64,000 bases of DNA from IMG/VR virus record IMGVR_UViG_3300000756_000010; one strand, 5' to 3'. Positions 1,387-42,314 of the stretch are shown piece by piece; position 1 is the stretch's first letter; every line of letters starts with the position of its first letter. Source of the stretch: a virus. The notes under the pieces are model-generated. The model worked only from the letters and a program-made list of their open reading frames with translations. It was not told the origin of the DNA and did no database searches. The position numbers and the translations under genes are program-made.

Positions 1387-2457
1387 ATGTATTCCCTTTC
1401 TAACGCATTTAAGACATTCGCGCCGATGCTCATTGAGCCGGCGAAGGCTAAAGCTTATCTTGAAAAGGTTGCCAGTTTGTCCCCCACCGACTTAAAGGCC
1501 GGAGACGAAATTGAAGACATGATGGAGATGCTCTTTGGTCCGAAGCCGATTATGATCAAGTCGGGCGACCTTGCCATTATCCCCGTCAAGGGCGTGATTG
1601 GCTCTGGTCTCACCGAGCTGGAAAAAATGATGGGTGCCACGGACGTCGAAGATATTCAGGAGATGCTGGAAGACGCCGAGCGTGACACGGGCGTCGAGAC
1701 CATTATCTTCGACTTTGATACGCCTGGTGGCACCGTGACGGGCGTCCCAGAGATGGCTGCTCGCATCCGTGCTTGTAAGAAGCGTACGGTCGGCTGGACG
1801 TGCAAGCAGTCCTGCTCCGCTGGTATGTGGATGATGAGCCAATGTGATGAGGTTTATGTCAGCCCATCGTCCGTTGTTGGTTCTGTCGGAGTCTATATTC
1901 CTATCTACGACATGAAAGCGGCCTATGCCGAAGAAGGCATCACCGTCGACCTAATCAAGGCAGGATGGGCGAAGGGCGCAGGATACACGGGTACGTCGAT
2001 GACCACCGAGCAGCGTAAACTTTTCCAAGATGACGTCGACGAAATGCACAACTGGTTCATTTCTGATATTCAGGCAGTTCGTACTTATGCCGACCAGGCC
2101 GATATGCAGGGGCAATGCTGGTCTGGCAAGAAGGGGGCTGAAAAGAGCCTTGTCTCTGGTCTGATGAACACTTTTGACGACCTGCTCATGGCCATCGACC
2201 CTGAAGAATACGCCATTTACGAACGTGCTGAGAAGCAGGTTCCGAGCGGTGGCCCTGCAAACCACGCCCAAATTGCTGACGTGTCGCCGGAACAGGGCGA
2301 AAAGAAAGATGATGGCGTCGAGCCTGTTTCTGACGGTAAAAAGAAGAAAAAGAAAAAGAAATCCGACGGAACTGATTCTGACGAGGACGAGGACGACAAC
2401 GAAATGCCCGATCAAGAATGCCCCCCCGTGGATACTGACTGCAAGCCCAAGGCTTGA
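1387..2457 (+). CDS. Head maturation protease, S49/SppA (lambda gpC-like)
   Basis: FDFDTPGGTV, CSAGMWMMSQCDEV and GSVGVY motifs of S49 peptidases; follows portal. Confidence 0.9.
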   Translation: MYSLSNAFKTFAPMLIEPAKAKAYLEKVASLSPTDLKAGDEIEDMMEMLFGPKPIMIKSGDLAIIPVKGVIGSGLTELEKMMGATDVEDIQEMLEDAERDTGVETIIFDFDTPGGTVTGVPEMAARIRACKKRTVGWTCKQSCSAGMWMMSQCDEVYVSPSSVVGSVGVYIPIYDMKAAYAEEGITVDLIKAGWAKGAGYTGTSMTTEQRKLFQDDVDEMHNWFISDIQAVRTYADQADMQGQCWSGKKGAEKSLVSGLMNTFDDLLMAIDPEEYAIYERAEKQVPSGGPANHAQIADVSPEQGEKKDDGVEPVSDGKKKKKKKKSDGTDSDEDEDDNEMPDQECPPVDTDCKPKA

Positions 2458-2473
2458 CACTTGGCTAAATTCA
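2454..2473 (+). promoter_or_regulatory. Late-gene motif TTGACA-N3-GGCTAAA-N2-CA, copy 1 (upstream of scaffold)
   Basis: ttgacacttggctaaattca; one of five copies, all directly 5' of structural genes. Confidence 0.75.
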
Positions 2474-2475
2474 AG

Positions 2476-2937
2476 ATGACGCTCGAAGAACGCCTCAATT
2501 CCCTAAAAGAAGCCTTTACTGGTAAGACCGCAGAGGTTGAAGCCAAGGCCGGTGAAGTCGCCTCCTTGTCCGCCAAGGTCGAGGAAATGACCGTTGCAAT
2601 GTCTGCTAAAGACGTGCAAATCGCTGAGTTCACCGCCAAGGTTACTGAACTTTCTGAAAAGCTCGCCGCCGCTGAAGATATCCGCGCCAAGGCTGAAGCC
2701 CAGGCAAAGGAAATTTCCGCCTCGCAAGAGACCGCTGGCAAGAAGGCCGCTAACATCGCTGCCTCAGTCGGTGTCACCCCCATTGAAGTCACCCCCTCCG
2801 AGGTCGCCGCTACTTTAAAGAGCGACGCCGAGATCTCCGAGGAGTGGGTGGCTCTCAAGCAGACCGACCCCAAGGCTGCTCACGATTTCTACAGCAAGAA
2901 CCGTCCGGCCATCCTTCGCGCCGCTGGTCTTCGCTGA
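2476..2937 (+). CDS. Capsid scaffolding-like coiled-coil protein
   Basis: Ala/Glu/Lys-rich helical sequence between protease and capsid; ATG 2476 preferred over TTG 2461, which lies inside the upstream motif. Confidence 0.65.
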   Translation: MTLEERLNSLKEAFTGKTAEVEAKAGEVASLSAKVEEMTVAMSAKDVQIAEFTAKVTELSEKLAAAEDIRAKAEAQAKEISASQETAGKKAANIAASVGVTPIEVTPSEVAATLKSDAEISEEWVALKQTDPKAAHDFYSKNRPAILRAAGLR

Positions 2938-2967
2938 TTTCACTCTCCCCTAAACTAAATACCAACT

Positions 2968-3882
2968 ATGTCTAACAACATTGGCGGATTGACCCTCCAG
3001 CTCGTCGCTGAAGAGTCCCTTCGCACCCTCGTCCCTGAACTCGTTCCCCTGACGGAAATTGCCGTCACCGATTTCGGTAACTACGTCGCCGAGCGCGGCA
3101 CCACGGTTCATACCCGTTATGCTGACGCCTTCACCGCCACGACCTTCAACCCGGCCAACGGTTTCGTCCCTGCCGACGCTACCTCGACCGACGTCCCTGT
3201 GACGATTGCCGATCTGAAGTATGTCGATGTCGCCTTCACCGACTACGAAGCGTCCACCCTTAGCCTGGAACGCCTCCGCCGCTTGTTCTTCGCCCCGATT
3301 GCCAACGCCGTTCAGAAGTCCCTCTTCGACGACGTCCTTTCCAAGGTGACCACGGCGAACTTCGCCACCGCTGCCTACTCCGGCGCGACCAGCGGTTTCA
3401 ACCGCATCGCCGTCGCCAACGCCGCCAAGAACATGACCAAGGCGAACCTGCCTCACATCAACCGTAAGCTCCTGCTTTCGCCCGATGCCCTTGGCCAACT
3501 CGTCCAAGACCCGTCCGTCGCACAGACGTTCTCCTACGGTAACAGCGATGTGATCCAGAAGAACGCCATCAGCAAGGAACTGCACGGTTTCTCGGTTTCC
3601 GAATACAACGGCTTCCCGACCTCCGGCTCTCCCTTCACCGAAGGACTCAACGGCGTGGCCTCCTGCAAGGAAGGTCTCGTCATCGTGACCCGTGTTCCTG
3701 CCACCCCGACCACCGGCGGTGGGGAGCAGATCGTCGTCCAAGACCCGGACAGCAAGTTCGCCTTCGCTCTCCGCTACTGGTACAACTGGCAAGCCGGCAA
3801 GCACAATATGTCTGCCCTCTGGCTCGTCGGTTCGGCTGTCGGTAATCCGAACGCCCTCCAGCGTATCGCCTTCACCTCGTAA
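2968..3882 (+). CDS. Major capsid protein (HK97 fold, P22-coat-like)
   Basis: 304 aa after scaffold; G.TV motif near the N-terminus; strongly C-ending codon bias suggesting high expression; followed by a terminator. Confidence 0.85.
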   Translation: MSNNIGGLTLQLVAEESLRTLVPELVPLTEIAVTDFGNYVAERGTTVHTRYADAFTATTFNPANGFVPADATSTDVPVTIADLKYVDVAFTDYEASTLSLERLRRLFFAPIANAVQKSLFDDVLSKVTTANFATAAYSGATSGFNRIAVANAAKNMTKANLPHINRKLLLSPDALGQLVQDPSVAQTFSYGNSDVIQKNAISKELHGFSVSEYNGFPTSGSPFTEGLNGVASCKEGLVIVTRVPATPTTGGGEQIVVQDPDSKFAFALRYWYNWQAGKHNMSALWLVGSAVGNPNALQRIAFTS

Positions 3883-3934
3883 TCAACCGAGGTAACTTTC
3901 GGGGGAGTTTAAAATCCCCCAAAGCGACAATGCG

Positions 3935-3975
3935 AAGCCCTCTCCCCGCGCCACGGGGGGAGGGTTTCTTATTTT
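3935..3975 (+). terminator. Intrinsic terminator after capsid gene
   Basis: aagccctctcccc-gcgccac-ggggggagggttt followed by cttatttt. Confidence 0.75.
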
Positions 3976-3993
3976 GACAATGGGCTAAACCCA
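3974..3993 (+). promoter_or_regulatory. Late-gene motif copy 2
   Basis: ttgacaatgggctaaaccca; the final A is the A of the ATG at 3993. Confidence 0.75.
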
Positions 3994-4331
3994 TGTCGGG
4001 AATCACGGACGAATGGGCTTTAGACGCCTCGGAAATCCTTTCCGAGATACCTAAGGCTGTGACGGTTAAAAACGTCCCAGCGGGGACGCCAGTAGCCTTA
4101 AACGCCCTAATGTCACAGCCGGCCATCATGCAGGACATGGAAACCGGGGGCTTTATGAATCAGACGTCGTTCGACATAAAGTTCCTGCGGACAGACGCTG
4201 TCGCTAATCCGGGGCTGATTGCCTTTGGGAATGTGGTGGTCTATGGGGGTCAGGAGTTTCGTATTATGACGGTTACCGACCGTCTTCCTTCCGCCTGGGT
4301 CATCGTCAAAGTCCAGACCAAGGTTCAGTAA
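3993..4331 (+). CDS. Head-tail joining / head closure protein (gpFII-like)
   Basis: 112 aa, beta-rich, directly after capsid; called on position and size. Confidence 0.55.
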   Translation: MSGITDEWALDASEILSEIPKAVTVKNVPAGTPVALNALMSQPAIMQDMETGGFMNQTSFDIKFLRTDAVANPGLIAFGNVVVYGGQEFRIMTVTDRLPSAWVIVKVQTKVQ

Positions 4332-5296
4332 TGGCCTTAGTGGTCACAGTCCGAAAGGGCGTCAAGGTGGACTATACTGAGTTCGCCAAGCATATTGCTT
4401 TGTACATGATGGTCATGCGTAAAAGCATTACGGAAGTCGTAAAGCAGCAAGCGCGGCTGTTCGCCAAGGATATGTGCGACTTTACCCCTCCGTTTTCTGG
4501 ATCAGTTCCGACAATTAGCAAGGGTGGCGAGGGAGGCTTTGGAAGCAAAGCTCGCAACAAAGGACGAGCCGCTGTCAGCCGGGATGTCCGCAAGATTTTC
4601 GCCCCCATCGCTCAAGCCCCCGCCGCAGGGGTGGCCGCTGCCGGCAACATTGGGATTCTGAATGCATGGATGAATGCCAAACTCAAACTGCCAGCTCCCC
4701 ACCAGCCCGAATACATTTTTAAGATGGTTGCCGAACGGGGCATCATTGGCCAAGGCGAGTTTGACTACTTTAAGAGGATTGAAGCTCGGCAGGGTTCACC
4801 CCGCACCCGTTTTATCATGGGTACGACTCAAGGCTCCATCAAGTCCATCCACGAACAGCGGCGCGGCAAACCGTCCTACAGGGTTTATGAAACTTCTAAA
4901 AGCGAGAAAGTGTATGTTGATAATTGGAGTCCCGTTGAACGATACATTAAGCAAGTCCAACAGCGCGTAGGAAAACTGAAGTCTGGCTGGTACTATGCTG
5001 GCCAGCAACTCGGCAAGATGCCCACTTCCGCCTGGATTGCCAATCAGGGGTCAGGCACAATGGTCTATTCTCCTCGACTTACCGGCCCCGATCCAATCGT
5101 TAAACTAGGCTCCACCATAGGCCGCAACTACAGCCAAGGCTACCACTTCATGCGGATGGCTATGAACCACCGTGCCTTTGCGATGAGAGTGGCCATGCTC
5201 AAGCATTTGCAAGCCCCGCGCAACCACGGCAAACTTGTCGATGTCATCCGCCGGCTCCAAGGCGGTTTCGACCTATCCCTTACCAATACACCCTAA
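4331..5296 (+). CDS. Neck / virion morphogenesis protein (basic, HK97 gp10-like position)
   Basis: 321-aa basic protein between head closure and tail terminator genes; TAATG-coupled. Confidence 0.45.
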   Translation: MALVVTVRKGVKVDYTEFAKHIALYMMVMRKSITEVVKQQARLFAKDMCDFTPPFSGSVPTISKGGEGGFGSKARNKGRAAVSRDVRKIFAPIAQAPAAGVAAAGNIGILNAWMNAKLKLPAPHQPEYIFKMVAERGIIGQGEFDYFKRIEARQGSPRTRFIMGTTQGSIKSIHEQRRGKPSYRVYETSKSEKVYVDNWSPVERYIKQVQQRVGKLKSGWYYAGQQLGKMPTSAWIANQGSGTMVYSPRLTGPDPIVKLGSTIGRNYSQGYHFMRMAMNHRAFAMRVAMLKHLQAPRNHGKLVDVIRRLQGGFDLSLTNTP

Positions 5297-5739
5297 TGCC
5301 CCCCCCTACCTTCTTCAGTTTCCGCACCGTCCTTGAGAACAAGGTGGCTGCTTACCTTGCACCGCTGTTCCCAGGCGTCACCGTCAATAAGGGCGTGACC
5401 GACGAGATTCGGGTCATCCCAATTATCATTGCTCATGCCGAGTCCAGCCAAGCCGTCCCTGACCTTGGTTCAGAAACCCTTGGCAATTACACGGCTACCC
5501 TTAAACTGTACATCTACTCGTCCGCCGACGACGAGACCCTTGAAGCCCATCGGGCAAGGGTCGTTGAGGTCATCGGTGCTATGCGCGATGTGCCATCTCT
5601 CCAAGCCCTTTGGAATCCGCTTACCGATGGCCAGCTTTACGATCTTTGGATTGCTAACGACGAGGAAGGCATGAGCCAACGCCGGTATGGTAACGTCATC
5701 GAATATACCGTTTGGGGGGTCATGCCGACCGCTCCTTGA
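5296..5739 (+). CDS. Tail terminator / tail completion protein
   Basis: 147 aa immediately before the tail tube gene; called on synteny. Confidence 0.5.
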   Translation: MPPPTFFSFRTVLENKVAAYLAPLFPGVTVNKGVTDEIRVIPIIIAHAESSQAVPDLGSETLGNYTATLKLYIYSSADDETLEAHRARVVEVIGAMRDVPSLQALWNPLTDGQLYDLWIANDEEGMSQRRYGNVIEYTVWGVMPTAP

Positions 5740-5755
5740 CACTTGGCTAAACTCA
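5736..5755 (+). promoter_or_regulatory. Late-gene motif copy 3
   Basis: ttgacacttggctaaactca upstream of tail tube ATG 5763. Confidence 0.75.
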
Positions 5756-5762
5756 TACGACT

Positions 5763-6092
5763 ATGGCAATTGATTACGGCGTAGCACATTTTTACGGTCT
5801 TTATGGTACGGTCACCTACATGACCCTTCAGTCTGACTCCCTGTCCCAGACGTTCAAGCTCGACGTTGAAGTCCCAGATGAGGTCGGCAGGGTTATCACG
5901 GATCGCCTGGACGATATGTTCCAAGAACTGAGTATCGAAGGCGTCCTCAAGGATGGCACGACCCCAGAAATCGGAACCCGGTTTGTTTATCTTGGTATCA
6001 ATTGGATTATCAAGTCTCTTGAAGACAAGGGTACGAACAAGGATTTCCGTAAGTGCGCCATCAAGGCCGTTAAGTACTCGCAAATCGCCTAA
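5763..6092 (+). CDS. Putative major tail (tube) protein
   Basis: 109 aa, beta-rich, own upstream motif, precedes chaperone and tape measure genes. Confidence 0.55.
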   Translation: MAIDYGVAHFYGLYGTVTYMTLQSDSLSQTFKLDVEVPDEVGRVITDRLDDMFQELSIEGVLKDGTTPEIGTRFVYLGINWIIKSLEDKGTNKDFRKCAIKAVKYSQIA

Positions 6093-6106
6093 CAGGGCGG
6101 CATCCG

Positions 6107-6703
6107 ATGGATGCTCGCTACCTGAAGGCAACGACAGTCCTGTCCCACCAGAACAAGGTGTGTGGCAGGACTCTTCGTGCTTTCTGTTTGCGGCATAGGG
6201 TGGCCTTGGAAGCCATCGGGTCTCCGTTCCTCGATCCGAGTAAGTCCAAGTTCGACCCGGTGCAGGTCGTTATGGCTGCGCGGATTCTATCAACCTATGA
6301 CAAGGAGGAGATGTCACGTCCTATCTCCATCATCGAAAAACTGTACATTGCCCGCATGGCAATGAGCAAAAAGTACTACTCGCGCTGCATTGGAACCATC
6401 CTTGGGTGCATCCAAGTGTCCCTTTCTTACCCCAAGTTCTGGGAAAAGGATGATAATAAAAAGGAAAACAAGAGGTTTGAATCCATCCCGTTCCCGCTGT
6501 CCTGCGTTTCTAGCCTATGCCGGAACGGCGTCGGCTTAGAGGAAGCCTGGACGATGCCGGAGGGCGAAGCAGTCTGGATGTCTGTTGCCAACGCTATTTA
6601 CAACGGTGCCAAGCTCGACGTGATATCCACAGAAGAGGAAAAAGAACTTGAGAAGTTTGATGAACGAATTGAGGCTTACAAGAAAGCCAACAACCATAAC
6701 TGA
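6107..6703 (+). CDS. Tail assembly chaperone (G/T-like single ORF)
   Basis: Between tail tube and tape measure; C-terminal EEAWTMP..AVW resembles gpT-type segments. Confidence 0.55.
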   Translation: MDARYLKATTVLSHQNKVCGRTLRAFCLRHRVALEAIGSPFLDPSKSKFDPVQVVMAARILSTYDKEEMSRPISIIEKLYIARMAMSKKYYSRCIGTILGCIQVSLSYPKFWEKDDNKKENKRFESIPFPLSCVSSLCRNGVGLEEAWTMPEGEAVWMSVANAIYNGAKLDVISTEEEKELEKFDERIEAYKKANNHN

Positions 6704-6708
6704 CGTAC

Positions 6709-7887
6709 ATGGCCGATTTATCAGTAACCATTGGACTAGATCAAAAGGAACTTGAGAAAGGTCTTTCTCAGGCAGGTAGGTCGATTGGTGGTATGGGCGG
6801 CAAGGGCGGTGCTGAAAACCCTTTCCAAGGTGCTGCCAACCAGCTCGGAACCGCGCAGGGTATTGGCAGTCTTATCGCCGGTCCTATCGGTGGTTTGATT
6901 GGTGGTTTCCTTGATGCGTTTGGAGGCATGATTGCGTCTGTAATGGCTAAGGTTAAGGAACTAGCCGATTACGCCCAGCAACTGCGTATTACATCCTTAA
7001 AGACCGGCCTGGGGATTGACCAAATTCGGCAACTTGAGGCTATTGGACAGGCTTTTGGCGTCAGCCTTCAAACTATGTCTGGGTCGGTCGTTGAGTTCAC
7101 GCGCCGCATGGGTGAAGCTCGGATCAAGGGCGGAGAGGTGACGAACCTTCTCGCAAAGATGGGCGTCGGTATGGATGAGATTGCCGACGGGAGTTTTGAC
7201 GCCACCAAAGCAATGAAGTCGTTGGCTGACTCTTACGCTGCCGGAACCGATGAAGCCACTCTGCTATACTACGGAACTAAATTGTTTGGCGACTCGTTCA
7301 AGGACTTGCTACCAATTATTAAGGCTGGGTCAAAAGCCATTGAAGACGCATCCCAAACTTACCTTGAAGCGAATTCCGATGCAACTGCATCCCTAGGAAG
7401 GTTTGGTCAGGATTTGGATAATATCGGACGAACAATCAAGAATTTCTTTATCAATCTGCTTGGAAGCGTTGTACAAATGATTGAAGAAATCCAGTTTCAA
7501 GCAGCCAATTTTTTCACCCTTGGTACATGGAATCCCTTTGAATCCCTTGAAGACGAGGTCTCCCGTAAACTAGAGAACGCACCTAAGTACATGACCGCCG
7601 AAGAAAGGGCTAAGTTTGTCCTTGAAGAAATTGACGACGACAAGAAAGAGGCTGCTAAAAAGGAAATTGAAAAGCAGCAAAAGGGTAATGGTAAAATCCT
7701 AACTCCCTTTGGACTATCCGAAGCCGGCGCGGCGTCCCAGCTCCAGCAAATGGGCGGTGGCGACGTCTTCGGGGCGGTGGCCTTCTCGCCCATTGAACGG
7801 ATTGCTACGGCCACCGAAGAGACAGCGTTAAACACTCGCCCAGGCTTAGTCCCTGCCCCACGTCCGTTGGACGATCTATCAAGATAA
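6709..7887 (+). CDS. Tape measure protein (short, 392 aa)
   Basis: MADLSVTIGLD start, Gly/Ala-rich amphipathic repeats (GSLIAGPIGGLIGG), helical body. Confidence 0.75.
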   Translation: MADLSVTIGLDQKELEKGLSQAGRSIGGMGGKGGAENPFQGAANQLGTAQGIGSLIAGPIGGLIGGFLDAFGGMIASVMAKVKELADYAQQLRITSLKTGLGIDQIRQLEAIGQAFGVSLQTMSGSVVEFTRRMGEARIKGGEVTNLLAKMGVGMDEIADGSFDATKAMKSLADSYAAGTDEATLLYYGTKLFGDSFKDLLPIIKAGSKAIEDASQTYLEANSDATASLGRFGQDLDNIGRTIKNFFINLLGSVVQMIEEIQFQAANFFTLGTWNPFESLEDEVSRKLENAPKYMTAEERAKFVLEEIDDDKKEAAKKEIEKQQKGNGKILTPFGLSEAGAASQLQQMGGGDVFGAVAFSPIERIATATEETALNTRPGLVPAPRPLDDLSR

Positions 7888-7889
7888 TT

Positions 7890-8861
7890 ATGTCACCCGC
7901 CTCTACTACACTAGTTCCTTACGGAAATAATCTCCTTACTCCTATACCCCAACCGGGTTGGCAGGTGGAGGCAGATGGCTTTGGTCTGTTACAGGCCCAA
8001 TGCAAATTTAAATGGGATTATTCAATGCGCGGATCGTTTCCGACCACGTTTAAAAAGGGCGACAAACTTTCCACGTTTATCTCTGGCGTTGAATCTGCTT
8101 ATGCAAATATGGGTCTTTGGAGGGCCAACATGACGACCGACAAAAACAATGTTTTGACGGTTACGGCTGACTTCTGCGGTATTGATCCGAGTGTAAATGG
8201 AGGAACAAAGACGAATACCCAAATGGTTATGACTGGTGCAACAGGGTCTGAGCCGATTGAACACCACCCCAATTTTCTCGTTCAAAATTTAGTAACAGGT
8301 TCTGGTGAGATGAAGGTTTTAGCCGGCTTCCCAAGTGCCAGCGGTTGGAATCCCTCTTTGACGCCTACAATCAATCCAAGCACGGGTGTCGGCGGTAACC
8401 CCAATCGTGCCTTGTGGACGCCAAGGGTTGCAAGCGGGGGTGCTACTCAAGGGCAGCAATTTGTCGGCTTCTTGCCCAATCAAGACCCGTCAGAATATCC
8501 AGGCAACATTAACATCAAGGCAGGAATCAAAAATTATTACAAGCCCTCCACAACGATGCGTTGTTTGTTCTATGTAAATGACGAGGTAAACGCCCTTGCT
8601 TTTGCATCTTATGTTGGCTGGACCACAAGCGGTGCAGTTTATCAAGTTCCTATTGCATACCAACAACTCGCCACCGGCGGATACGGAGGAAATCTAATTT
8701 ACACATCAGTCTGGCAAAACCAAATTCGGAGGGGTTTCTTAATTACAAGTTGTTCGGTAGAAGTATATGGTGGTATCTATAAGTTGACCGCCGATCTTAT
8801 GCTTTCCGGCATTGGTGGCTGGGATAAAGATATCTATCCAAACCTTGACGGACCAGCCTGA
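7890..8861 (+). CDS. Tail tip / distal tail protein
   Basis: 323 aa, Gly/Thr/Asn-rich, directly after tape measure. Confidence 0.5.
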   Translation: MSPASTTLVPYGNNLLTPIPQPGWQVEADGFGLLQAQCKFKWDYSMRGSFPTTFKKGDKLSTFISGVESAYANMGLWRANMTTDKNNVLTVTADFCGIDPSVNGGTKTNTQMVMTGATGSEPIEHHPNFLVQNLVTGSGEMKVLAGFPSASGWNPSLTPTINPSTGVGGNPNRALWTPRVASGGATQGQQFVGFLPNQDPSEYPGNINIKAGIKNYYKPSTTMRCLFYVNDEVNALAFASYVGWTTSGAVYQVPIAYQQLATGGYGGNLIYTSVWQNQIRRGFLITSCSVEVYGGIYKLTADLMLSGIGGWDKDIYPNLDGPA

Positions 8862-9454
8862 TGAGATCAATCGGAGGATTTAATGGTTCGTCAATTAGCG
8901 GTTCTTTTGCCGCTGGTGAGCCTATTTCGGCTACCGCGCTGAACAAACTTGCAGCCGGAATTGATGCAACACGGTCAATGCCTAGTAACGATGTTTTGTT
9001 TCAGTCTAACACGAACGGTACCGCATATAACTTACCGCAGCAGATTTATTATTCCCCCACTAGTGGCCCTCTTGATCCCAACTTGGACGACGATAAAGTA
9101 ATCATAACCCCAGGCACCGTCAACCGATACATCCCCAAGATTGGTTCAACATATATCGACAGCATCCCTGCACCTAAACTATCAATTAATAACGATGGAT
9201 ATGTTATGGTAAAGGTGACCTATGCGGTAAATAAATTTTTCCCGCGCACCGCAGAAATTGTATTTATGGCAGTTACGACTCCCCCGGCGGATACACTTGA
9301 TGAAAGTTATTGGCCGTTAGCCAAGGTGAACAAAAGCGTGACCAGCTCTGGGACTACTTATGCGCTGCAATACTTCTCTAATGGTAATCTGATTGTCAAT
9401 CGCTTGTTAGCCGGTCAAGGAGAGGCTACTTGGTGGTGGGACGTCATTAAATAA
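8861..9454 (+). CDS. Minor tail protein
   Basis: 197 aa, TGATG-coupled, within the tail-tip block. Confidence 0.45.
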   Translation: MRSIGGFNGSSISGSFAAGEPISATALNKLAAGIDATRSMPSNDVLFQSNTNGTAYNLPQQIYYSPTSGPLDPNLDDDKVIITPGTVNRYIPKIGSTYIDSIPAPKLSINNDGYVMVKVTYAVNKFFPRTAEIVFMAVTTPPADTLDESYWPLAKVNKSVTSSGTTYALQYFSNGNLIVNRLLAGQGEATWWWDVIK

Positions 9455-10279
9455 ATGCCAGACCAATGGAATGCATCTACGGCCTATGGACCTGACTCCG
9501 TGGTCGAATACAATAATCTAGTCTACAAGCGTTCTAGATTTCCAAATACTGTTGATGTGGGGCCGCCCCCTAATGAAGCGATGGGAGTTGATCCTCTTGG
9601 TGAACCGATTAGAACGTGGACGCTAAATCAATATGATTTTGATTTTTTAAATAAAAGAAATCGTATCATCCCAAGGTATTTTAGGCTTATTCAAGATTAT
9701 GATACAGTCGCTGGTTTTACAAATTACCAAGGCATGACAAAATTTGCCCAAAGTGCTTATAATTATTATTTCTTTGATATTAAATATTCAGACGGCTACA
9801 CGGTAGAAATAGATCAATCAGGCAGCGGCTTTGGAGATGTCCCGGCAAACAAGTGCGGGGTGGCCTTGCAACAACGGCAAGAACTCAACTGGGATACTTA
9901 CGAGACGCCACCCACTTTCGGTGTGGAGGCTTATATAATTGTTAGGCAAAATTTAATTAAAGTAGGCGGACAATGGGTTGAAGACCCAAACGCACAGCCA
10001 CCATTTACTTATTATGCGTTTTTGCTTTTCAACCATCCTTTATATTTTAGGCGCGTCTTCCAGCTCGCATATTATTATGGAGACAATGCATCACCGTCGG
10101 TAAATCACGAAGTGACTAAAAATTTTACGCCGACGGACAAGAATTACTGTCGGAGAGACTTTCTTAATAACGGATCAGAAAGTTATTTCCAGCCAGACAA
10201 TGCCGCCTGGACGTTTACCCTTTCTGCCGGCGATATATTGGGTTCCGTTTGGGTAAAAAGCATAGAGTCAAACGACTGA
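9455..10279 (+). CDS. Minor tail / receptor-binding-associated protein
   Basis: 274 aa, aromatic-rich and AT-rich; N-terminal WNASTAY....VVEYN..VY resembles carbohydrate-binding type 5/12 repeats. Confidence 0.4.
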   Translation: MPDQWNASTAYGPDSVVEYNNLVYKRSRFPNTVDVGPPPNEAMGVDPLGEPIRTWTLNQYDFDFLNKRNRIIPRYFRLIQDYDTVAGFTNYQGMTKFAQSAYNYYFFDIKYSDGYTVEIDQSGSGFGDVPANKCGVALQQRQELNWDTYETPPTFGVEAYIIVRQNLIKVGGQWVEDPNAQPPFTYYAFLLFNHPLYFRRVFQLAYYYGDNASPSVNHEVTKNFTPTDKNYCRRDFLNNGSESYFQPDNAAWTFTLSAGDILGSVWVKSIESND

Positions 10280-10290
10280 TTTGGGCAGTA

Positions 10291-10310
10291 TTGACATACG
10301 GCTAAACTCA
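10291..10310 (+). promoter_or_regulatory. Late-gene motif copy 4
   Basis: ttgacatacggctaaactca upstream of ATG 10323. Confidence 0.75.
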
Positions 10311-14274: not shown

Positions 14275-14940
14275 CTAGGCGGCTTTCTTGGGGTAAGGCA
14301 GGACTGGGTACTTCAGCTTTTTCATCAGTTCCTTCTTACGGGTCTTGGAACAGTTAAAATAGATGTACCGATACTTCATGCTGCTAAAGTATTCCTCAAC
14401 CATGTCTTCGCCATATTGATCAATGATGTCCTGCTTCGTCATGCGTTCCCGGCGGCGGTAGACCGTCCCACCAGCGTTAACCGATGCATTCTTGGGTCGG
14501 AAGTACTTCATCTTCGGGCTAATGCCCGTATAAATCCAATTGGTAGCTTGGTAGATATACCCAATATGTCCCTGCTCGGAATCCGCAAAGGACACGATAA
14601 TTTCAAAGGGGCATTGGCGAAGGGCATGGCCTACAAAGAAGCTTTCAGTATTCTTGGGCATCGATTCCTCAACCCATAACCTATTGAACTCAACCACGTT
14701 CTTGCTTTCGTCGTTGCCGCAAATGCCGTTGCAAAGAGTGTAGGAAGACGGCTTGCCAAAGACAATCACGCCGACAAGCCTGCCTTGCTGAAAGAAATCA
14801 TCATTGGTCGTCTCGTTGGTGAATAAGCCAAACGACGCTGAACAGGAACATTCCCTGTGCAGGTAATGATTTTTAACGATGGTATCCATTGCCAACCTAT
14901 ATTCGATAGGTCTTACCGTGAGAGTAGACACGATGCTCAT
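14275..14940 (-). CDS. mom: Mom-like DNA adenine modification enzyme (GNAT fold)
   Basis: NHYLH, GVIVFG.P, EFNRLW, SFADSEQGHIGYIYQATNWIYTG motifs typical of Mu Mom homologues. Confidence 0.8.
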   Translation of the reverse strand: MSIVSTLTVRPIEYRLAMDTIVKNHYLHRECSCSASFGLFTNETTNDDFFQQGRLVGVIVFGKPSSYTLCNGICGNDESKNVVEFNRLWVEESMPKNTESFFVGHALRQCPFEIIVSFADSEQGHIGYIYQATNWIYTGISPKMKYFRPKNASVNAGGTVYRRRERMTKQDIIDQYGEDMVEEYFSSMKYRYIYFNCSKTRKKELMKKLKYPVLPYPKKAA

Positions 14941-16925
14941 GTGTCGTATTTGGTGCCTTGGTAGTACAGAGCGGCACCCACCTTTCGGGGTTCGATAATG
15001 CCGTTGGTGACCATAGCCTTGATAAGGGCTTCCGCCTGGTCGCGCTGGAGTTTGTGGTCGGACACCAATTCCTCTAGCAAAGCCCCCCGGCTGATGCGGG
15101 GCTTGGACTCAAAGTGACGGTACTGCTGCCCGACCTTGAGCAGCTCGAAACCGCCGGCCAAGGGGGCGACCTCCCATAGCACCCGATCATCGGCGTGTTT
15201 TAGTTTGATTGATAGGGTAGGCTTGCCGTCTGGCGTCCGCATCCCAGCCAGCTTCCCGCGCTTCGTTAGGTTGAACGAGAACACGGGCAGTTCCTTCGAC
15301 TCCCGCCTGATGTTGATAATGGCCCTTGACCAGTTCACCAACTCCGAACTCCCAATACCGCTGTACATCTGGTCGGACACCGTCTGGCCGTCCTTGACCT
15401 CCTGCGGCTTTGGTTTGCCCTCATGGTGGATGAAGACCATGATGCACCCCGTTTCCTGAAGCACGGGCTGCACAAGGTTACGCAGGAAGTGGGAGCAGAC
15501 CTCCTGCTTGGATAGGTCACCCCCCACATAGGACAGCAGCGGATCGGCGACCAGCACGTCCAGTTTATGCCTTACGATAATCTTCCTGCACAGGTCGACA
15601 AAGTCCTTGCCCGTCTTCGACGCCTCGGTAAAGAACTTTAGGTTCGTTTTGCACAACGCCTTCTCTTCCGGGGACAGACGCATTCCAGAACTGACGCCCT
15701 GATAGGCTTCGGCAAGGTCTCCGATATCGCACTCGGCTTGAACGACTGCGATTTTGAGAGGGTGAATGACAGGTATCCCGAAGAGTTCCCGACCGATTGC
15801 CCAAGAAGCTGCCATCTGCATGACAAACGACGACTTCCCGATTCCTGATTGACCTGTAACGAGTAGCGAGCCACCACGGCATAAGTACCGACCGTGTCCG
15901 ACGACGTGGTTAGGATCGTTTCTCGTGTCATAGTTTTCCAAGGTTTCCGTGCTGACTTCTTGTGGAAAGTCTTGTCCTTCCCTCCAAGCAACGAAGTCAT
16001 CCCAGTCCAAGGCTCCCGTTTTAAAGGCGACGATTTTCTGTTCGTTCTCCCCGCGCATGACTCCGCCGAGGCGGCTCCAGCGGGACGGGTTCTTGTTTTG
16101 CGGGTCGGGTTCATGGTCGGAAAGGTAGTCATACACCGTATTACGTCGCTCTTCCCATTGCTCCTTGGTCTGGGCGTCGACGCGCACCCAGGCGTGGACT
16201 GACTTGCCGCCAGAGTCAACGAGCAGGCTGATGGGCAGGTTTGATTGCTGGAAGATGGCCACCTGCTCGTCCTTGGGCTTCTTGTCGAACTCGACCAAGA
16301 CGTGGCGGTAGGCGGATACCGCACCGTCCGTCCCCGTGAAGTCGTCGGGCGTAAAGGGGTTGATGCGAATCCAAGCCCCCGACTCCGTGCCGGCAAACTT
16401 AGCAGCCCCCACGGCTCCGGGGCCAAAGAACTTGGTGATCCACTCAGCGCGGGTCAGGAAGATGCCCTTCGACGCCGGGAACCACTTACCGTCCTCGGTC
16501 TGGCCAGCTTCGTTCGTGATGCAGATGATGTCCTCGTTCGTAAAGCAGTTCAGCAGGACATCAGCGGTCGTGAAAGGCGTCTGGGCTTCAGCCAGCTCCG
16601 CAACCCGGTTGGGGTCAAAGACGAAGCGACCGTTCGCCCCGACCCTACGCTCCGTACCCTTGGCAAGCCAACCCTTCTGGCGTTCGTGAGGCTTGACGTA
16701 GGCGTCGTTCAACTTGTGACGCAGGTCTTTCTCAGACCACGGCGGCGAGCAGCGGAGGTTAAACTCCTGAAGCAGGCTCCAAGCGTCCGACCACGGCAGG
16801 TCAAACCCATTGGCCAATATGCTGGCGGCACGGTAGGTGGCGGGATGTCCGCCTTGGCCGGCGACAGCGGCAGGCAGTTTAGCGAGATAGGCTCTCGCCC
16901 CGGAAACACGATCCTCGGTGGTCAT
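14937..16925 (-). CDS. Primase-helicase (PriCT-like + RepB-type AEP primase + AAA_25/SF4-like helicase)
   Basis: LVEFD and SGGKSVHAW primase motifs; Walker A GQSGIGKS; Walker B VLVADP; FIHHEGK; GSSEL. Confidence 0.85.
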   Translation of the reverse strand: MTTEDRVSGARAYLAKLPAAVAGQGGHPATYRAASILANGFDLPWSDAWSLLQEFNLRCSPPWSEKDLRHKLNDAYVKPHERQKGWLAKGTERRVGANGRFVFDPNRVAELAEAQTPFTTADVLLNCFTNEDIICITNEAGQTEDGKWFPASKGIFLTRAEWITKFFGPGAVGAAKFAGTESGAWIRINPFTPDDFTGTDGAVSAYRHVLVEFDKKPKDEQVAIFQQSNLPISLLVDSGGKSVHAWVRVDAQTKEQWEERRNTVYDYLSDHEPDPQNKNPSRWSRLGGVMRGENEQKIVAFKTGALDWDDFVAWREGQDFPQEVSTETLENYDTRNDPNHVVGHGRYLCRGGSLLVTGQSGIGKSSFVMQMAASWAIGRELFGIPVIHPLKIAVVQAECDIGDLAEAYQGVSSGMRLSPEEKALCKTNLKFFTEASKTGKDFVDLCRKIIVRHKLDVLVADPLLSYVGGDLSKQEVCSHFLRNLVQPVLQETGCIMVFIHHEGKPKPQEVKDGQTVSDQMYSGIGSSELVNWSRAIINIRRESKELPVFSFNLTKRGKLAGMRTPDGKPTLSIKLKHADDRVLWEVAPLAGGFELLKVGQQYRHFESKPRISRGALLEELVSDHKLQRDQAEALIKAMVTNGIIEPRKVGAALYYQGTKYDT

Positions 16926-26860: not shown

Positions 26861-27573
26861 ACCCCAAGGGGATGCCCCCCCAAAAAAGAAAGGCAATCAA
26901 ATTTTTATCCCCCAGGGGGGGGAAATCCTTCGGAAAATAAAAAGGGGGCGCAATATTTTAGGGGGTCTTCGTTTTGGGATCATGCACGTTGGCCGTGCCC
27001 CGTCAGCAGAATGTATCCTATTTAATGCCCGTATTTATTGGCCTAAAGTTATCTATAATAAATCGACCTATGCAATTCGACGTGTCGACGGTGCGGAGAT
27101 TATGGCCGGTTATTCTCCGCAAAAATGCGTAGGAAAATCCCAAAAAAATCCCGACGCGCGGGTCACAAAACACTTTTTTTATGGGGGAACTTTTTGAAAA
27201 TCAGCAAAAAGGGGGGGGGGCAGTATGAGTCCCAGGTGTCGACCCCCCTGATTTTTCAAAATTTGAATCATGCAATCATTAGTCAGGTTATAATGATTAC
27301 CTAATCTTAGGTCGGCAACCTAAGATTCAAAGTGGGTTAAGCGTGGGTTAAGTGATCACATAAAACGCCCTTCATGGGCGGCGTTTAAGCTGAACAGCCT
27401 AAAATAGTAAACCGCCCTTTTCCAGCTTGGCGGGGATGCCAAGGGCGGACGGGGCGGCTTGCCGCCTAGCTTGCCTAAGGCGGGGCGGGGCGGGGCGGCA
27501 AGGGGGAAGGGCAAGGCGGGGCGGAAAATCGACATTAAGGGGTAATGGGATGTATCAAATGATGTAGTCCCAT

Positions 27574-28718: not shown

Positions 28719-29069
28719 TTAAACGGTGGGGGGATGAGCTGGGTATGAAATAACGGCGGCGGCACGTTTTTTTTGCTCAATCAATGCGGCAATATTATTA
28801 AGGCGGGCGGCGTCTTCCCAGCCGAGGGAATCGGCGGGGAATATTTGACGGAAGGAACGGGCGGCGGCGTTAAGCTTCGCCGGGGCGTTTTCCAGCTCCG
28901 CCCAGCTTACGGCGGAAGAAACGTCATCAAGGTCATCAATTACGGAAGCGACGTTCATGCCGCCAAATTTTGCAGCTGGAAAATCAATGGCCGTCGAAGC
29001 CAGTAAGTCGGCGACGTTTTCGACCTGATTAAGAGCGGATTGAATCTCAGCGGGGAGGGGAGTTTTCAT
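28719..29069 (-). CDS. Hypothetical early protein
   Basis: Ala-rich helical ORF, AACATG start. Confidence 0.5.
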   Translation of the reverse strand: MKTPLPAEIQSALNQVENVADLLASTAIDFPAAKFGGMNVASVIDDLDDVSSAVSWAELENAPAKLNAAARSFRQIFPADSLGWEDAARLNNIAALIEQKKRAAAVISYPAHPPTV

Positions 29070-29095
29070 GTTTTTGATTTGGGTTTTTAACTGGG

Positions 29096-29494: not shown

Positions 29495-29501
29495 GGGTAG
29501 G

Positions 29502-29531
29502 AGATTAAAGGCAAAATGCGGCGGATGTCAT
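29502..29531 (-). promoter_or_regulatory. Sigma70-like early promoter
   Basis: - strand ATGACA-N18-TAATCT, ending 7 nt before ATG 29494. Confidence 0.4.
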
Positions 29532-29611
29532 AATCCAAAGGAATAAAACAATGGCGGCGGCGGCTAGCGCGTCTTTAATGGTTTGCATGGGATTTTGGAA
29601 AGCTTTGGGTT

Positions 29612-30044: not shown

Positions 30045-30401
30045 TTAGAGGTTATATTTTTTCTCAATTGCGGCACGGTACTCTTTAGCCTTGGAAACCT
30101 CTTCGTCGGCAAGGTGGGCGGCAGCTTCGGCACCTTCAGCTTTTATGACGGCCCAGCAATCGCCGCCGCCTTCCAAATCTTGAGAGCCGTTCTGATAGGC
30201 AAGCTCGGCGGCAGCTTCCAAGAAACGGTAAAACGCCCATGCCTTCTTAGAAGCTGCAATAGCTTCCCATTCCTTTAAACGGGCGAGGGATATCTCCGCC
30301 GCTTTAATCGAGCGGGCGTCTCCTGATGATTCGGCAGCGGCAAGGCAGGCGACGGCGTCGGTTGCGGTTTGATTGATATTGATACGGTGGGCGGGGTTCA
30401 T
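30045..30401 (-). CDS. Hypothetical Ala-rich early protein
   Basis: 118 aa from MNPAHRIN; AACATG context. Confidence 0.55.
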   Translation of the reverse strand: MNPAHRININQTATDAVACLAAAESSGDARSIKAAEISLARLKEWEAIAASKKAWAFYRFLEAAAELAYQNGSQDLEGGGDCWAVIKAEGAEAAAHLADEEVSKAKEYRAAIEKKYNL

Positions 30402-30438
30402 GTTATTTATTTTTTTTGGGTGGAAAGGAATTAAGTGA

Positions 30439-30708: not shown

Positions 30709-31240
30709 AAACAAAAATAAGCACGGCGTGCCGTCAACGCCTATTTATCAAATCATTTGACCGTCTTTATAGAAGGGCGGCACGGCATGGGGGGGGGGAT
30801 GGCTTACCCTATGCCTACCCTTGCCCCAGCTGGGCGGCTTCCTTAGGTGGCAAGCTGGGCGGCAAGCTGGGCGGACGGGGCGACCCCATGCACGGGGCGG
30901 CAGCTTAATACTAAGCAGGGCGGCAGCGGGGCGGCGGCATGACATCAACCCAGCTGGCACGGCAACCCCGCCGGCATAGGCACCGGCACCGGCGGCAACG
31001 GAAACCCCCACCTAACAGGGGGGAGGCAAAGTCATGGCCGCTAAGTGGGGCGGCAGTGGGGCATGGGTGGGGGGAGCTTGCCTGAATCCTGACCTATTCA
31101 CTGATCATTAGTGCCCCACTAAGGATTCTCTTTGGGGTTCCGCCAGCGGGGGGGGCGAAGCCCCGCCGACCCCACTAAAAAGTTGGGGGTAAACCTGCAA
31201 AAACCATTCAAAATGATATGTCCGGCTATATGTGTTGTTA

Positions 31241-31276
31241 TAGCAACTACAGTAGCAACCACAGTAGCAAAACATA
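31241..31276 (+). repeat. Three 12-bp direct repeats (TAGCAACTACAG / TAGCAACCACAG / TAGCAAAACATA)
   Basis: Read directly in the divergent intergenic region. Confidence 0.8.
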
Positions 31277-31286
31277 TAGACAATTC

Positions 31287-31377
31287 ATTTACTTTGTATC
31301 TACCTAAAGGTAGATAAGACAAAGTAAATAATGGTCAGACCATTATTGGCTTTACGCTTGGAAGCGTAGCCATAATG
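31287..31377. promoter_or_regulatory. Cluster of overlapping inverted repeats including perfect palindrome AATAATGGTC-A-GACCATTATT (31327-31347)
   Basis: Arms checked by hand; function (operator, ori or cos) not determined. Confidence 0.6.
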
Positions 31378-31385
31378 TCCGCCCA

Positions 31386-31757
31386 ATGAGCCAACCCTTC
31401 CGCCCCTTCCGCCGCCGCACAGGCCAGCCACCGATCACCAGGCGTCCCGAATCGCCGTGGGCTAGGGCGTGGCGTCTGTCGCCGGAAAGGATGCGGCAGC
31501 ACATTGGCCAACTGAACGACGCCCGGACGGCCAAATCGGATGAAGCCGCCCAGCTTGTCCAAGCGGTCATCAACCTGATCCCCGCCGACAAGGGCTACCG
31601 TGCCCACGAACTTCGAGACTTGTTCGCCTCTGAGTGGGGAAGGTGCTACGACGAGCCTCTGACCAAGAAGGACGCATGGAACAAGATTCGCAAGGCCATG
31701 CGTCACGGGATGCTTGGGCGGGATGACAACGGTTTGATATATCCACGACAAGGGTAG
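31386..31757 (+). CDS. Hypothetical basic protein
   Basis: 123 aa; first rightward gene. Confidence 0.6.
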   Translation: MSQPFRPFRRRTGQPPITRRPESPWARAWRLSPERMRQHIGQLNDARTAKSDEAAQLVQAVINLIPADKGYRAHELRDLFASEWGRCYDEPLTKKDAWNKIRKAMRHGMLGRDDNGLIYPRQG

Positions 31758-31816
31758 AGGGGTTGACTGACGGGACAGTATGGCGTAACGGTGGAGGGGT
31801 GGTAATAAATAACGAC

Positions 31817-32044
31817 ATGAACGAAGAACAGCTTCGGGCGGCTTGCGACACCATCGTAGCCGACGCCAAGCAACTTCGGAAGATTGGAGCCTTGAACATC
31901 CTTCGTGCCGCGCACATCTCGGAACACAGCGGAGACGAAGAGGTGGTACAGATGCTTGTTTGCGAGGCGGCTGTCATGCTTTCGGTTGCCAGCCAGATTG
32001 AAGACCTGTTCTGTCCTTCTACCGATACCGATGCCAATCTATGA
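31817..32044 (+). CDS. Hypothetical protein (MNEEQLRAAC...)
   Basis: 75 aa; ATG 31817 preferred. Confidence 0.55.
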   Translation: MNEEQLRAACDTIVADAKQLRKIGALNILRAAHISEHSGDEEVVQMLVCEAAVMLSVASQIEDLFCPSTDTDANL

Positions 32045-32591
32045 AGATTATCAGAGGTTCTGGAAGCTGCTATCGAAGGCGGAACGACAGGCGTTGCTTT
32101 CGACTGGGTTCGACCCGGCCCGGCCCGACGACGCCGGCGTCCCTTTCGCACATCGTTACTTTTCAGGAGAACCTACGGACGAGGGTGATGGTGAACACCA
32201 AACCGTGGGCGGATGGGGTAAGGGCTATGACATCAATAATCTTCAGGCGTTACAATGGAGGTTGCGTGATCGCAACGAGACGTCCGAGATGAGCAATAAG
32301 ATGTTCACACAGGACGAGGTGCTGGACATCCTCCGCAAGGTGATTGCCGTCATTGATTTTTCGACCCATGCAGAAGTACGTCTCCACGGAACGTGCATCA
32401 AGTTGGCACTAGGGATGCCCGACCAGCCGACCATGACAGCCTTGGCCAACCAGCACCGGCTGACCCGTGCGGCAATCTCGGCGCGGGTAAAGACTATCCA
32501 GCGTAACTTAAACCTGCCACCGTCGCTGTACATGAAGTCCGACGCCGCTTGCAAGAAACTGTCCAACGCCCGAAGGAAGAAACTCAAGTGA
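32031..32591 (+). CDS. Transcription regulator with C-terminal HTH (sigma region 4-like)
   Basis: PTMTALANQHRLTRAAISARVKTIQRNL HTH; directly upstream of terS. Confidence 0.55.
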   Translation: MPIYEDYQRFWKLLSKAERQALLSTGFDPARPDDAGVPFAHRYFSGEPTDEGDGEHQTVGGWGKGYDINNLQALQWRLRDRNETSEMSNKMFTQDEVLDILRKVIAVIDFSTHAEVRLHGTCIKLALGMPDQPTMTALANQHRLTRAAISARVKTIQRNLNLPPSLYMKSDAACKKLSNARRKKLK

Positions 32592-33223
32592 GCGACAGAC
32601 CTCGCCCCATCGACCTTGCTGGACGCTTCGGTGTCACCAAGCAGGCCATCAACAAATTCATCCAAGCGGGGATGCCCATCGACTCAATCGAGTCCGCTGA
32701 AGCCTGGTACATGGCACGGGGTGCCGGTCGCATGGGCAACAACGTCCGACCCGATAAGGATTTCAATGAGACCGTCGAGCGTCAGCGCGAACTGAAGGCT
32801 TTGGCCTACCAGCAGTACCTTGACGACCTTGGGAGTAATTCGCCCGACGCCAGCAAGTCGTATGCGACCTACGACAAGTTGGTAAAGACGCTGGTCACGC
32901 TGGAGAAGGAACTCCAAGCCCGACAGATTGCCAGCCGTGAGTACATCCGCACCCAGACCGCCATCGAAAGGTTCGGAAGAGTGTTCGCGCAGGTTCGGGA
33001 GGAGGTTACTCAGCTCGGCACTAAACTGGCGTCGAGGGTCAACCCTGACAATCCCGGTCGTGCCATGAAGGCCATCGACGACGAGGTAAAGAAGATGCTA
33101 GAACGACTTTCGTCCGCCGCTGGCTATGCCGAGCAGGCCGTGATCAAGGAAGTAGACACGGAAGATCCAATTGAGGTTGACTCTGGCGATGAGGATTCAA
33201 TAGATGAGGTTGAATCGCCATGA
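32588..33223 (+). CDS. terS: Terminase small subunit (Nu1-like)
   Basis: N-terminal HTH RPIDLAGRFGVTKQAINKFIQAGMP, coiled coil, P..LA.R.; GTG start at 32588. Confidence 0.8.
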   Translation: MSDRPRPIDLAGRFGVTKQAINKFIQAGMPIDSIESAEAWYMARGAGRMGNNVRPDKDFNETVERQRELKALAYQQYLDDLGSNSPDASKSYATYDKLVKTLVTLEKELQARQIASREYIRTQTAIERFGRVFAQVREEVTQLGTKLASRVNPDNPGRAMKAIDDEVKKMLERLSSAAGYAEQAVIKEVDTEDPIEVDSGDEDSIDEVESP

Positions 33224-35951: not shown

Positions 35952-35975
35952 CGGCACGTCGTCTGATGGTATCTT
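35948..35975 (+). promoter_or_regulatory. Sigma70-like promoter TTGACG-N16-TATCTT overlapping terL stop
   Basis: Read directly; predicted start near 35982. Confidence 0.5.
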
Positions 35976-35984
35976 ATTCTTTAA

Positions 35985-36058
35985 GCCGGCTGATCAGACA
36001 CACATACCACGGGTGGCTCTTGTGGATTGTTCATGGGGTGGGGTCAGCCGGCCCTTTT
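35985..36058 (+). ncRNA. Candidate small structured RNA
   Basis: 11-bp closing stem 35985-35995/36042-36052, internal stem, 3' T-run, upstream promoter; no family assigned. Confidence 0.35.
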
Positions 36059-36075
36059 ACACAGGGCTAAAAGCA
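36056..36075 (+). promoter_or_regulatory. Late-gene motif copy 5 (one mismatch)
   Basis: tttacacagggctaaaagca upstream of ATG 36077. Confidence 0.65.
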
Positions 36076-36076
36076 A

Positions 36077-37935: not shown

Positions 37936-37938
37936 ACG

Positions 37939-39009: not shown

Positions 39010-39025
39010 CACTTGGCTAAATTCA
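39006..39025 (+). promoter_or_regulatory. Late-gene motif (copy of 2454-2473)
   Basis: Offset +36552. Confidence 0.75.
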
Positions 39026-39027
39026 AG

Positions 39028-39489: not shown

Positions 39490-39519
39490 TTTCACTCTCC
39501 CCTAAACTAAATACCAACT

Positions 39520-40434: not shown

Positions 40435-40525
40435 TCAACCGAGGTAACTTTCGGGGGAGTTTAAAATCCCCCAAAGCGACAATGCGAAGCCCTCTCCCCG
40501 CGCCACGGGGGGAGGGTTTCTTATT

Positions 40526-42307: not shown

Positions 42308-42314
42308 TACGACT

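Follow-up and report, generated by a model that had tools for sequence, protein, structure and literature searches.

The late promoters of phage T4 consist of TATAAATA at -10, lack a -35 element, and are read by gp55 together with gp33 and the sliding clamp. In mycobacteriophages, the stoperators of cluster A and start-associated sequences are short, asymmetric repeats that are oriented with transcription and sit in tight gaps, often over stop codons. Phages of Gram-positive bacteria encode late activators (RinA, ArpU and LtrC) just upstream of terS, the small terminase gene. We describe here a 20-bp motif, TTKACA-N3-GGCTAAA-N2-CA, in an uncultured freshwater phage represented by the IMG/VR virus record IMGVR_UViG_3300000756_000010. 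The whole stretch analyzed, referred to as the window, is 64,000 nt long and consists of one 36,552-bp phage genome laid out 1.75 times as an exact repeat with zero mismatches. The motif occurs in five unique copies, all on the + strand, and comparison with related genomes leads us to regard it as probably a compact, phage-specific late promoter that yields leaderless or short-leader mRNAs and is used by host RNA polymerase (RNAP) together with a phage factor. Searches of the literature for the motif, leaderless late promoters, and the Verrucomicrobia phage P8625 returned no description of this element.

The motif resembles T4 late promoters in being short and repeated ahead of many late genes, and we propose that host polymerase is here likewise redirected by small phage proteins. 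It differs from them in that the TATAAATA octamer is absent, a -35-like hexamer would stand at -19, and the mRNAs are predicted to be leaderless. No gp55- or gp33-like families were detected in the phage with Pfam and PHROGs, although a remote homologue could escape such searches. With T7-group promoters the motif shares a length of about 20 bp, near-invariance within a genome, a lineage-specific inner segment, many co-oriented copies, and a block made up of promoter, capsid gene and terminator, but no single-subunit RNA polymerase gene was found in the window phage. Pfam and PHROGs searches of the phage's genes identified no RNA polymerase, DNA polymerase, integrase or repressor. The motif is like stoperators in being short, asymmetric, oriented with transcription, placed in tight gaps, and overlapped with stop codons. 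Unlike the stoperator phages, the window phage has no detected repressor or integrase, its sites are limited to the late arm and hold a fixed distance to an A, and a Shine-Dalgarno sequence is absent before every gene, the leaders being C/A-rich.

Copy 1 (2454-2473) overlaps the end of the protease gene, whose TGA stop lies within TTGACA, and the ATG of the scaffold-position gene (2476) falls at motif position 23. Copy 2 (3974-3993) stands behind the capsid-gene terminator, and the last base of the motif provides the A of the start codon of gene 3993-4331 (position 20), just as the original prediction had it. In copy 3 (5736-5755), the TGA of TTGACA is the stop of gene 5296-5739, and the tail-tube-position gene begins with an ATG at 5763 (position 28). 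Copy 4 (10291-10310) is located 11 nt past the upstream stop and 12 nt ahead of the ATG at 10323 (position 33) of a small gene, which in turn sits ahead of the 667-amino acid (aa) tail-fibre gene. Copy 5 (36056-36075), the TTTACA variant, directly follows a long hairpin and T-run and lies 1 nt ahead of the ATG of the gpW-like gene at 36077 (position 22). Further matches at 39006, 40526, 42288 and 46843 are second copies, since the window repeats with a period of 36,552.

All five copies had been predicted at these places and on the + strand only, and all five were found there. The range given with that prediction (2454-10310) holds four of them and omits the fifth, which its text includes. The pattern is far above chance, as claimed: 100 dinucleotide-preserving shuffles gave 0.00 matches, and no copy is present on the - strand. 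The early and replication region (14.2-31.4 kb) is also free of the motif, in agreement with the prediction, and a looser search for its core with one mismatch added nothing convincing. The description of the genes behind the copies as structural is roughly right; PHROGs support the identities of their neighbors (portal, protease, major capsid and tape measure), while the small genes right behind the copies are named from position alone.

The hexamer is near the -35 consensus (TTGACA in four copies, TTTACA in one), and it had been argued that it cannot act as a normal sigma70 -35 box. Our results bear this out. Its first T lies 19-32 nt upstream of the ATG over the five copies, the distances originally given, and a profile of 146 non-redundant relatives' sites has no consensus for a -10-like hexamer (TAnnnT) at motif positions 24-29, where canonical spacing would place it. 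With a canonical start about 36 nt past the first T, transcription would begin within four of the five open reading frames (ORFs), whose ATGs are at positions 20-33. TTGACA is scarcer than expected, with 14 occurrences in the window against 29.9 +/- 5.7, and eight of the 14 are motif copies. Sigma70-like promoters occur at chance level in the late region (17 found, 14.1 expected), and the five motif sites were not among the calls of a promoter scan of the region. The GG/GC pair 10 bp apart that would mark a sigma54 (-24/-12) promoter is absent from the motif, as read directly from the sequences.

Viral metagenome contigs were scanned for the exact 15 specified bases, and >119 contigs matched. 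Many of these hold three or four copies at the window's spacings, and some of the single-copy contigs are chance matches. Within 964 kb of related contigs, 202 copies were exact, 34 had one mismatch, none had two, and 11 had three, the last figure being equal to the shuffled background. The one-mismatch copies are dominated by the G3-to-T change seen in copy 5 (24 of 34), and none of the 34 is altered at A20. In order to avoid circularity, relatives were also fetched with the protein gC, which is encoded immediately before terS, and not with the motif. At the loci obtained in this way, the motif is present at 28 of 28 pre-gpW sites (in the TTTACA form) and at 15 of 15 pre-scaffold sites (exact), while the flanking sequences vary.

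Across 145 non-redundant sites, the start codon is never earlier than motif position 20; it lies at 20-23 in 54 of them and mostly at 27-36 otherwise. The sequence would also permit an ATG at position 16, but none was found there. The stop codon of the upstream gene is inside the motif at 62 of the 145 sites, supplied by the TGA of TTGACA at 51 and by the TAA of GGCTAAA at 11. The start position is fixed for each gene class in the relatives: position 20 for the gene behind the capsid terminator (in each of the 11 relatives in which this start could be assigned), 20 or 23 for the scaffold gene, 22-23 for the gpW-like gene, 28 for the tail-tube gene (12 relatives), and 27-38 for the pre-fibre gene.

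Distant lineages, sampled via portal and gC homologues, carry variant units. Eight such lineages each have their own internally invariant unit at the same four or five gene positions, those shared being the sites in front of the gpW-like, scaffold and tail-tube genes and the site behind the major-capsid terminator. The units are TTGACA-TAM-GGCAAW (lineage L154), TTGACA-N3-GGCRAAT-AGT-A (L160), TKGACW-WTW-GGCWAWW (L158), TKGACT-N3-GGCTAHY (L120), TTGACA-N3/4-CTCAAAY (L156), TTGACT-GCC-GCGTTGA-YYY-A (L169), TTGACT-CCC-GCGGAGG-NNT-A (L170), and TTGACT-CCT-GCGKAG-NNNY-A (L171). Three features are conserved throughout: the sequence TTGAC(A/T), a triplet rich in G/C (positions 10-12), and a pyrimidine-A step (positions 19-21). 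TTGAC(A/T) is kept over lineages that span 41-62% G+C. GGCTAAA is the form of one clade, and across the family only TTGAC and its distance to the A are conserved.

The distant-lineage ATG falls exactly at position 20 in about half of the sites (three of the four L160 sites, three of the five L169 sites, and two sites in each of L170 and L171) and at 19 or 21 in several others, and the final A is often the A of the ATG in nine lineages. At the pre-tube sites, the A is kept while the ATG lies 10-17 nt further on; the A, at a set distance from TTGAC, is thus conserved in its own right. Judged from these comparisons, the conserved A behaves as a transcription start would, and not as expected of a start codon or an element for ribosome binding. 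The unit's second half is invariant within a genome and differs by lineage, which points to a reader encoded by the phage and not by the host. The original prediction of a late promoter read with a phage factor is partly supported: sequence comparison favors each of its parts, with the amendment that its GGCTAAA represents only one clade's version. As a separate observation, L171 has a DNA/RNA-ligase-like gene (14394-15152) inserted between the capsid gene and the next head gene, and the compact motif stands after this insert, directly ahead of the head gene.

Two of the copies are found beside terminator-like structures. A hairpin of the intrinsic-terminator type follows the major capsid gene on the + strand at 3934-3968 (second copy, 40486-40520); it has 15 pairs, 10 of them G-C, is the strongest such hairpin of the region, and its T-run runs straight into copy 2. 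A T-run just ahead of the motif at this position is present in 11 of 14 relatives. Between terL, the large terminase gene, and copy 5, a long + strand hairpin followed by CCTTTT (35985-36052) is not significant alone (z = -1.46), and a hairpin and T-run of other sequence occupy the same place in L120, L156 and L158. It is read here as the terminator-like end of a unit that consists of terS, terL, gC and gB, the last a small gene preceding gC. Because copies 2 and 5 directly follow these hairpins, the genes behind them need a new start, and the motif is the sole conserved element ahead of the ATG.

The window had no megablast match among cultured phages. By portal similarity, the best-scoring cultured phages were Akkermansia phage Moulinsart and P8625, the latter a distant relative that has much of its gene repertoire in common with the window phage. 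P8625 contains five copies of a 36-bp unit (at 5412, 9620, 10736, 15558 and 17505), in which TTG(A/C)(C/A)A is followed by nine bases, GTATCC, seven bases, TATTGGATAC, three bases and ATG. The units are positioned ahead of the gpW-position gene, right after the capsid terminator, and ahead of tail and fibre genes. Their geometry is canonical, with a -35 hexamer, 17 bp, a -10-like hexamer, 7 bp and the ATG, and this geometry predicts that the P8625 messages would be leaderless. The units indicate that the wider lineage puts promoters at these positions and that TTGACA apparently serves its hosts as a -35 element. P8625 and the window phage are alike in their TTGACA-type hexamer, their late-operon positions and leaderlessness by geometry. 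They differ in that the first T of the hexamer is 36 nt upstream of the ATG in P8625 and 19 nt in the window phage, i.e. 17 bp closer, and in that the -10-like hexamer and a GTATCC/GGATAC dyad of the P8625 unit are both lacking from the window motif.

Some further observations concern these two phages. The internal GTATCC/GGATAC dyad of P8625 looks operator-like. The annotated TTG start of P8625 gp13 at 9620 is the TTG of the unit's -35-like hexamer, TTGCCA, and the unit's geometry makes the ATG 36 nt downstream the likely true start. Promoters are not discussed in the P8625 genome paper. Moulinsart (L168) has another, purine-rich repeat (about AGAGACGGYRGGGAWA) located 5-25 nt ahead of several late-gene starts, upstream of 2808, 4684, 10632 and 15339.

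We propose that the 20-bp unit spans about -19 to +1, with RNA starting at the final A or within one base of it. The mRNAs of the gpW-like, scaffold and head-completion genes would then be leaderless or have leaders of 1-3 nt, and those of the tail-tube gene and the fibre module would have leaders of 7-13 nt without a Shine-Dalgarno sequence. Five units and two terminator-like hairpins would split the 14-kb morphogenesis region into separately driven blocks, one of which would comprise scaffold and capsid genes and be closed by a terminator. Since TTGACA at -19 to -14 is unreachable for the sigma70 region 4 of a normal holoenzyme and no -10 element is present, host RNAP would have to be redirected by a phage product. 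The leading candidate for this product is gC, with gA, a second small protein, working together with gC or in its place; both are encoded in what would be the leftmost part of the genome, with an ordinary TTGACT-N17 promoter ahead of them. The RNA start at the motif and the identity of its reader are what we infer from the motif itself, its conservation and placement, and the modeled folds of gA and gC.

The gC gene (32031-32591, + strand) encodes 186 aa and had been named in the original prediction as the possible phage factor. Its structural model has two N-terminal helices, a disordered acidic linker, and a C-terminal helix-turn-helix (HTH) domain of four helices, which is predicted at residues 94-159 with a pLDDT of 80-87. 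Chains of sigma region 4 recur among the weak fold matches, together with LuxR/NarL, homeodomain and small-terminase HTH folds. Pfam and PHROGs have no match for gA, gB or gC. Among 100 of 261 gC homologues, however, Pfam reports Sigma70_r4 in eight (best E-value 1.5e-6), MarR_2 in 13, and Sigma70_r2 in one (E-value 0.0027), and none in gC itself. The HTH is invariant among homologues that are just 55% identical overall, and the LPPSxYM(K/R)S block that follows it forms a widely conserved C-terminal tail. No match for gC was found in cultured phages, searches of PDB sequences with gC and gA were empty, and neither protein is detectable in P8625 or Moulinsart.

Wherever the sampled locus of a compact-motif lineage extends over the gC region, a gC homologue is present. 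In the phages compared so far, compact units are accompanied by gC, and P8625, with its long canonical unit, has no detectable gC. The recognition helix of gC also varies with motif clade, being TRAAISARVKTIQ where the motif is TTGACA...GGC and TRAAVSLRCRKLL where it is TTGACT...GCG. Proposing gC as the factor is in line with its putative sigma region 4/LuxR-like HTH and its co-occurrence with the compact motif, and the neighboring gA or a host factor may be the reader instead. On balance we consider gC a plausible candidate for the motif reader, with somewhat less than an even chance of being correct. Like RinA, ArpU and LtrC, gC would be a small sigma-like HTH protein, and it is encoded right before terS, at the head of packaging and morphogenesis genes. 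It differs from them in that it matches none of their Pfam or PHROG models and has no target between gC and terS; its targets would instead be the five sites further downstream.

The gA gene (31386-31757, + strand) encodes 123 aa, modeled as a long helix and a winged-helix domain (pLDDT 86). It adjoins gC in several distant lineages (L120, L158, L160 and L169), and gA may be a serious alternative or partner reader. Between the two genes, gB (31817-32044, + strand) encodes a small protein of 75 aa. A promoter-like unit, TTGACT, 17 nt, TAACGG (31763-31791, + strand), is located after the gA stop and upstream of gB, gC and terS. Its TTGACT hexamer and its spacing (N16/17) are kept in all relatives examined, and this unit probably drives gB-gC-terS from unmodified host polymerase. 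A 138-aa ORF on the - strand (31335-31751) overlaps gA; the conserved reading is gA on the + strand, with homologues down to 30% identity. In L169, a near-copy of that lineage's own unit (TTGACTGCCGCG, then a different tail) is found at about 6380, some 70 nt upstream of the gC homologue, and may reflect autoregulation.

How such a protein could act on the polymerase is a more tentative matter. It is possible, but we would not call it likely, that a sigma-region-4-like gC, alone or with gA, docks onto host RNAP such that the hexamer is read at -19 to -14 and RNA starts 19 nt from its first base.

Several points weigh against a phage-directed promoter of this kind. To our knowledge, there is no known mechanism by which a bacterial polymerase uses a -35-type hexamer at -19. 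The matches of the gC fold are weak and unspecific (Foldseek E-value 0.6 and VIA-align Z 5.1 at best), as are the winged-helix matches of gA, and gC is not a complete sigma factor, because its short N-terminal helices and linker do not provide a sigma region 2. Shared descent confounds the link between helix and motif, and the gC helix is near-identical in L169 and L171, whose motifs differ after GCG. Being encoded next to terS and the likely genome end, gC and gA could serve DNA packaging. Two freshwater metatranscriptome runs and one DNA run were compared over window positions 31000-50999 as assembled contigs; the RNA contigs cover the phage nearly evenly and cannot resolve 5' ends, and one of them bridges copy 1. 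The one hint of transcript ends is that RNA contig depth rises modestly across the scaffold and capsid genes. The sole relative in a species-level genome collection is a 26-kb contig binned with an Opitutia metagenome-assembled genome, and this bin is a doubtful host because its other contigs are 71-74% G+C and the phage contig is 62%. The motif-bearing phages appear to infect Verrucomicrobia.

The alternative that survives best, which we nonetheless think unlikely, is that the motif is not a start but an operator for a phage DNA-binding regulator, e.g. gC or gA, which would block or modulate transcription through the late operon in the manner of stoperators. This would suit a short, asymmetric motif that is co-oriented with transcription in minimal intergenic gaps, that encloses the upstream stop at 62 of 145 sites, that has two HTH-type proteins encoded nearby, and that is crossed by an RNA contig at copy 1. 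The failure to find an integrase or repressor with Pfam and PHROGs and the confinement of the sites to the late arm argue otherwise. Furthermore, an operator gives no reason for the fixed-distance pyrimidine-A, for its coincidence with the ATG in nine lineages, or for siting behind terminators, and the units at matching positions in P8625 are promoter-shaped.

A promoter used by host polymerase with a host alternative sigma or other host factor, and with no phage protein, seems to us decidedly improbable. The constancy of TTGAC(A/T) over lineages of 41-62% G+C is in keeping with such a factor, and the same sequence is the -35 of canonically spaced units in these phages and in P8625. It is the lineage-specific second half, together with the lack of the motif from every early gene, that speaks against a host factor, as does the finding that TTGAC-N4-GGCTA is restricted to the phage contig within the 2.4-Mb Opitutia bin. 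One lead of this type was tried and dropped: the second half of the motif resembles what we take to be the -10 consensus of Caulobacter sigma73, GCTANAWC. Canonically spaced TTGAC...GCTA does not occur intergenically, GCTANAWC copies are without pattern, and the distant lineages do not have GCTA.

We give very little credence to an RNA-level signal for translation initiation or processing on late mRNAs made from one upstream promoter, for although the motif is always just ahead of a start codon in a phage without Shine-Dalgarno sequences and metatranscriptome contig depth is nearly even, the motif-ATG distance of 0-17 nt is too loose to position a ribosome, the genes of the most abundant proteins (capsid, portal and tape measure) do not carry the motif, the five sites fold differently from one another and no more stably than shuffles (z -1.8 to +0.6) with no Rfam match, the second half varies among phages that presumably share ribosomes, and terminators stand directly ahead of two copies.

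The phage genome is 53% G+C, and features at 1-27448 of the window recur at +36552 because of its period. The + strand genes begin at about 31.4 kb and continue across the wrap point as far as 14.2 kb, in the order gA, gB, gC, small terminase, a PAPS-reductase-like gene and a lambda-type large terminase; then the gpW-like gene, portal, an S49/ClpP-type protease, the scaffold-position gene, major capsid protein and head-completion genes; and finally the tail-tube-position gene, tape measure, the 667-aa fibre and lysis genes. Early and replication genes occupy the - strand from 31.0 down to 14.3 kb, with products that include a Mom-like protein, primase-helicase, phosphoesterase, kinase, methylase, helicase, nuclease and resolvase, and one gene with a weak RecT-like match below the Pfam cut-off. 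The 667-aa ORF is the largest, and the big ORFs are primase-helicase, helicase, terminase and fibre according to Pfam and PHROGs. No tRNA and no Rfam families were found in the phage genome, and a repeat search of the early region revealed no shared motif there.

Other features of the genome were observed alongside. About 10 relatives have contigs that stop some 865 nt ahead of the gC homologue, at a point equivalent to ~31166 in the window and adjoining a G/C hairpin. This coincidence of ends suggests that ~31166 is probably the physical genome end (cos), and gA would therefore be the first left-arm gene. Three palindromes at 31255-31385, upstream of gA, keep their pairing in relatives via changes on both arms (for example TCTACCT...AGGTAGA against TCTCCCT...AGGGAGA); as both arms change together, they are likely functional hairpins or operators. 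Three apparent gaps of the early region on the - strand (28781-29095, 29495-29611 and 30134-30438) have ATGs behind AAAAACCCAAA-type leaders and probably contain small genes missed by the ORF cut-off. A 460-nt stretch of the early arm (26897-27355) is non-coding and contains long runs of C and G, inverted repeats and A/T-rich blocks, which makes it a candidate for an origin or an early control region.

Phage-specific late promoters that depend on phage factors are a known theme, and there is a fair chance that the initiation geometry is new: no described counterpart was found for a -35-type hexamer 17 bp too close, with no -10, a lineage-variable segment, and a start at the ATG. If gC does dock onto RNAP in the way suggested above, initiation would follow a geometry as yet undescribed for bacterial polymerases, with leaderless late mRNAs and with the lineage-specific inner segment in the role that the specificity region has in T7-type promoters. 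Such a system would be common among freshwater phages, probably of Verrucomicrobia, a group whose transcription and translation signals are almost unstudied; the exact form of the element is abundant, being found on >119 viral contigs, and variants occur in several other lineages. With a 20-bp site and two or three small proteins, the system is compact and testable, and could show how host polymerase is re-aimed and how leaderless messages serve high-level expression of structural genes. The motif is also a practical guide to start codons and operons when genomes of this phage group are annotated.

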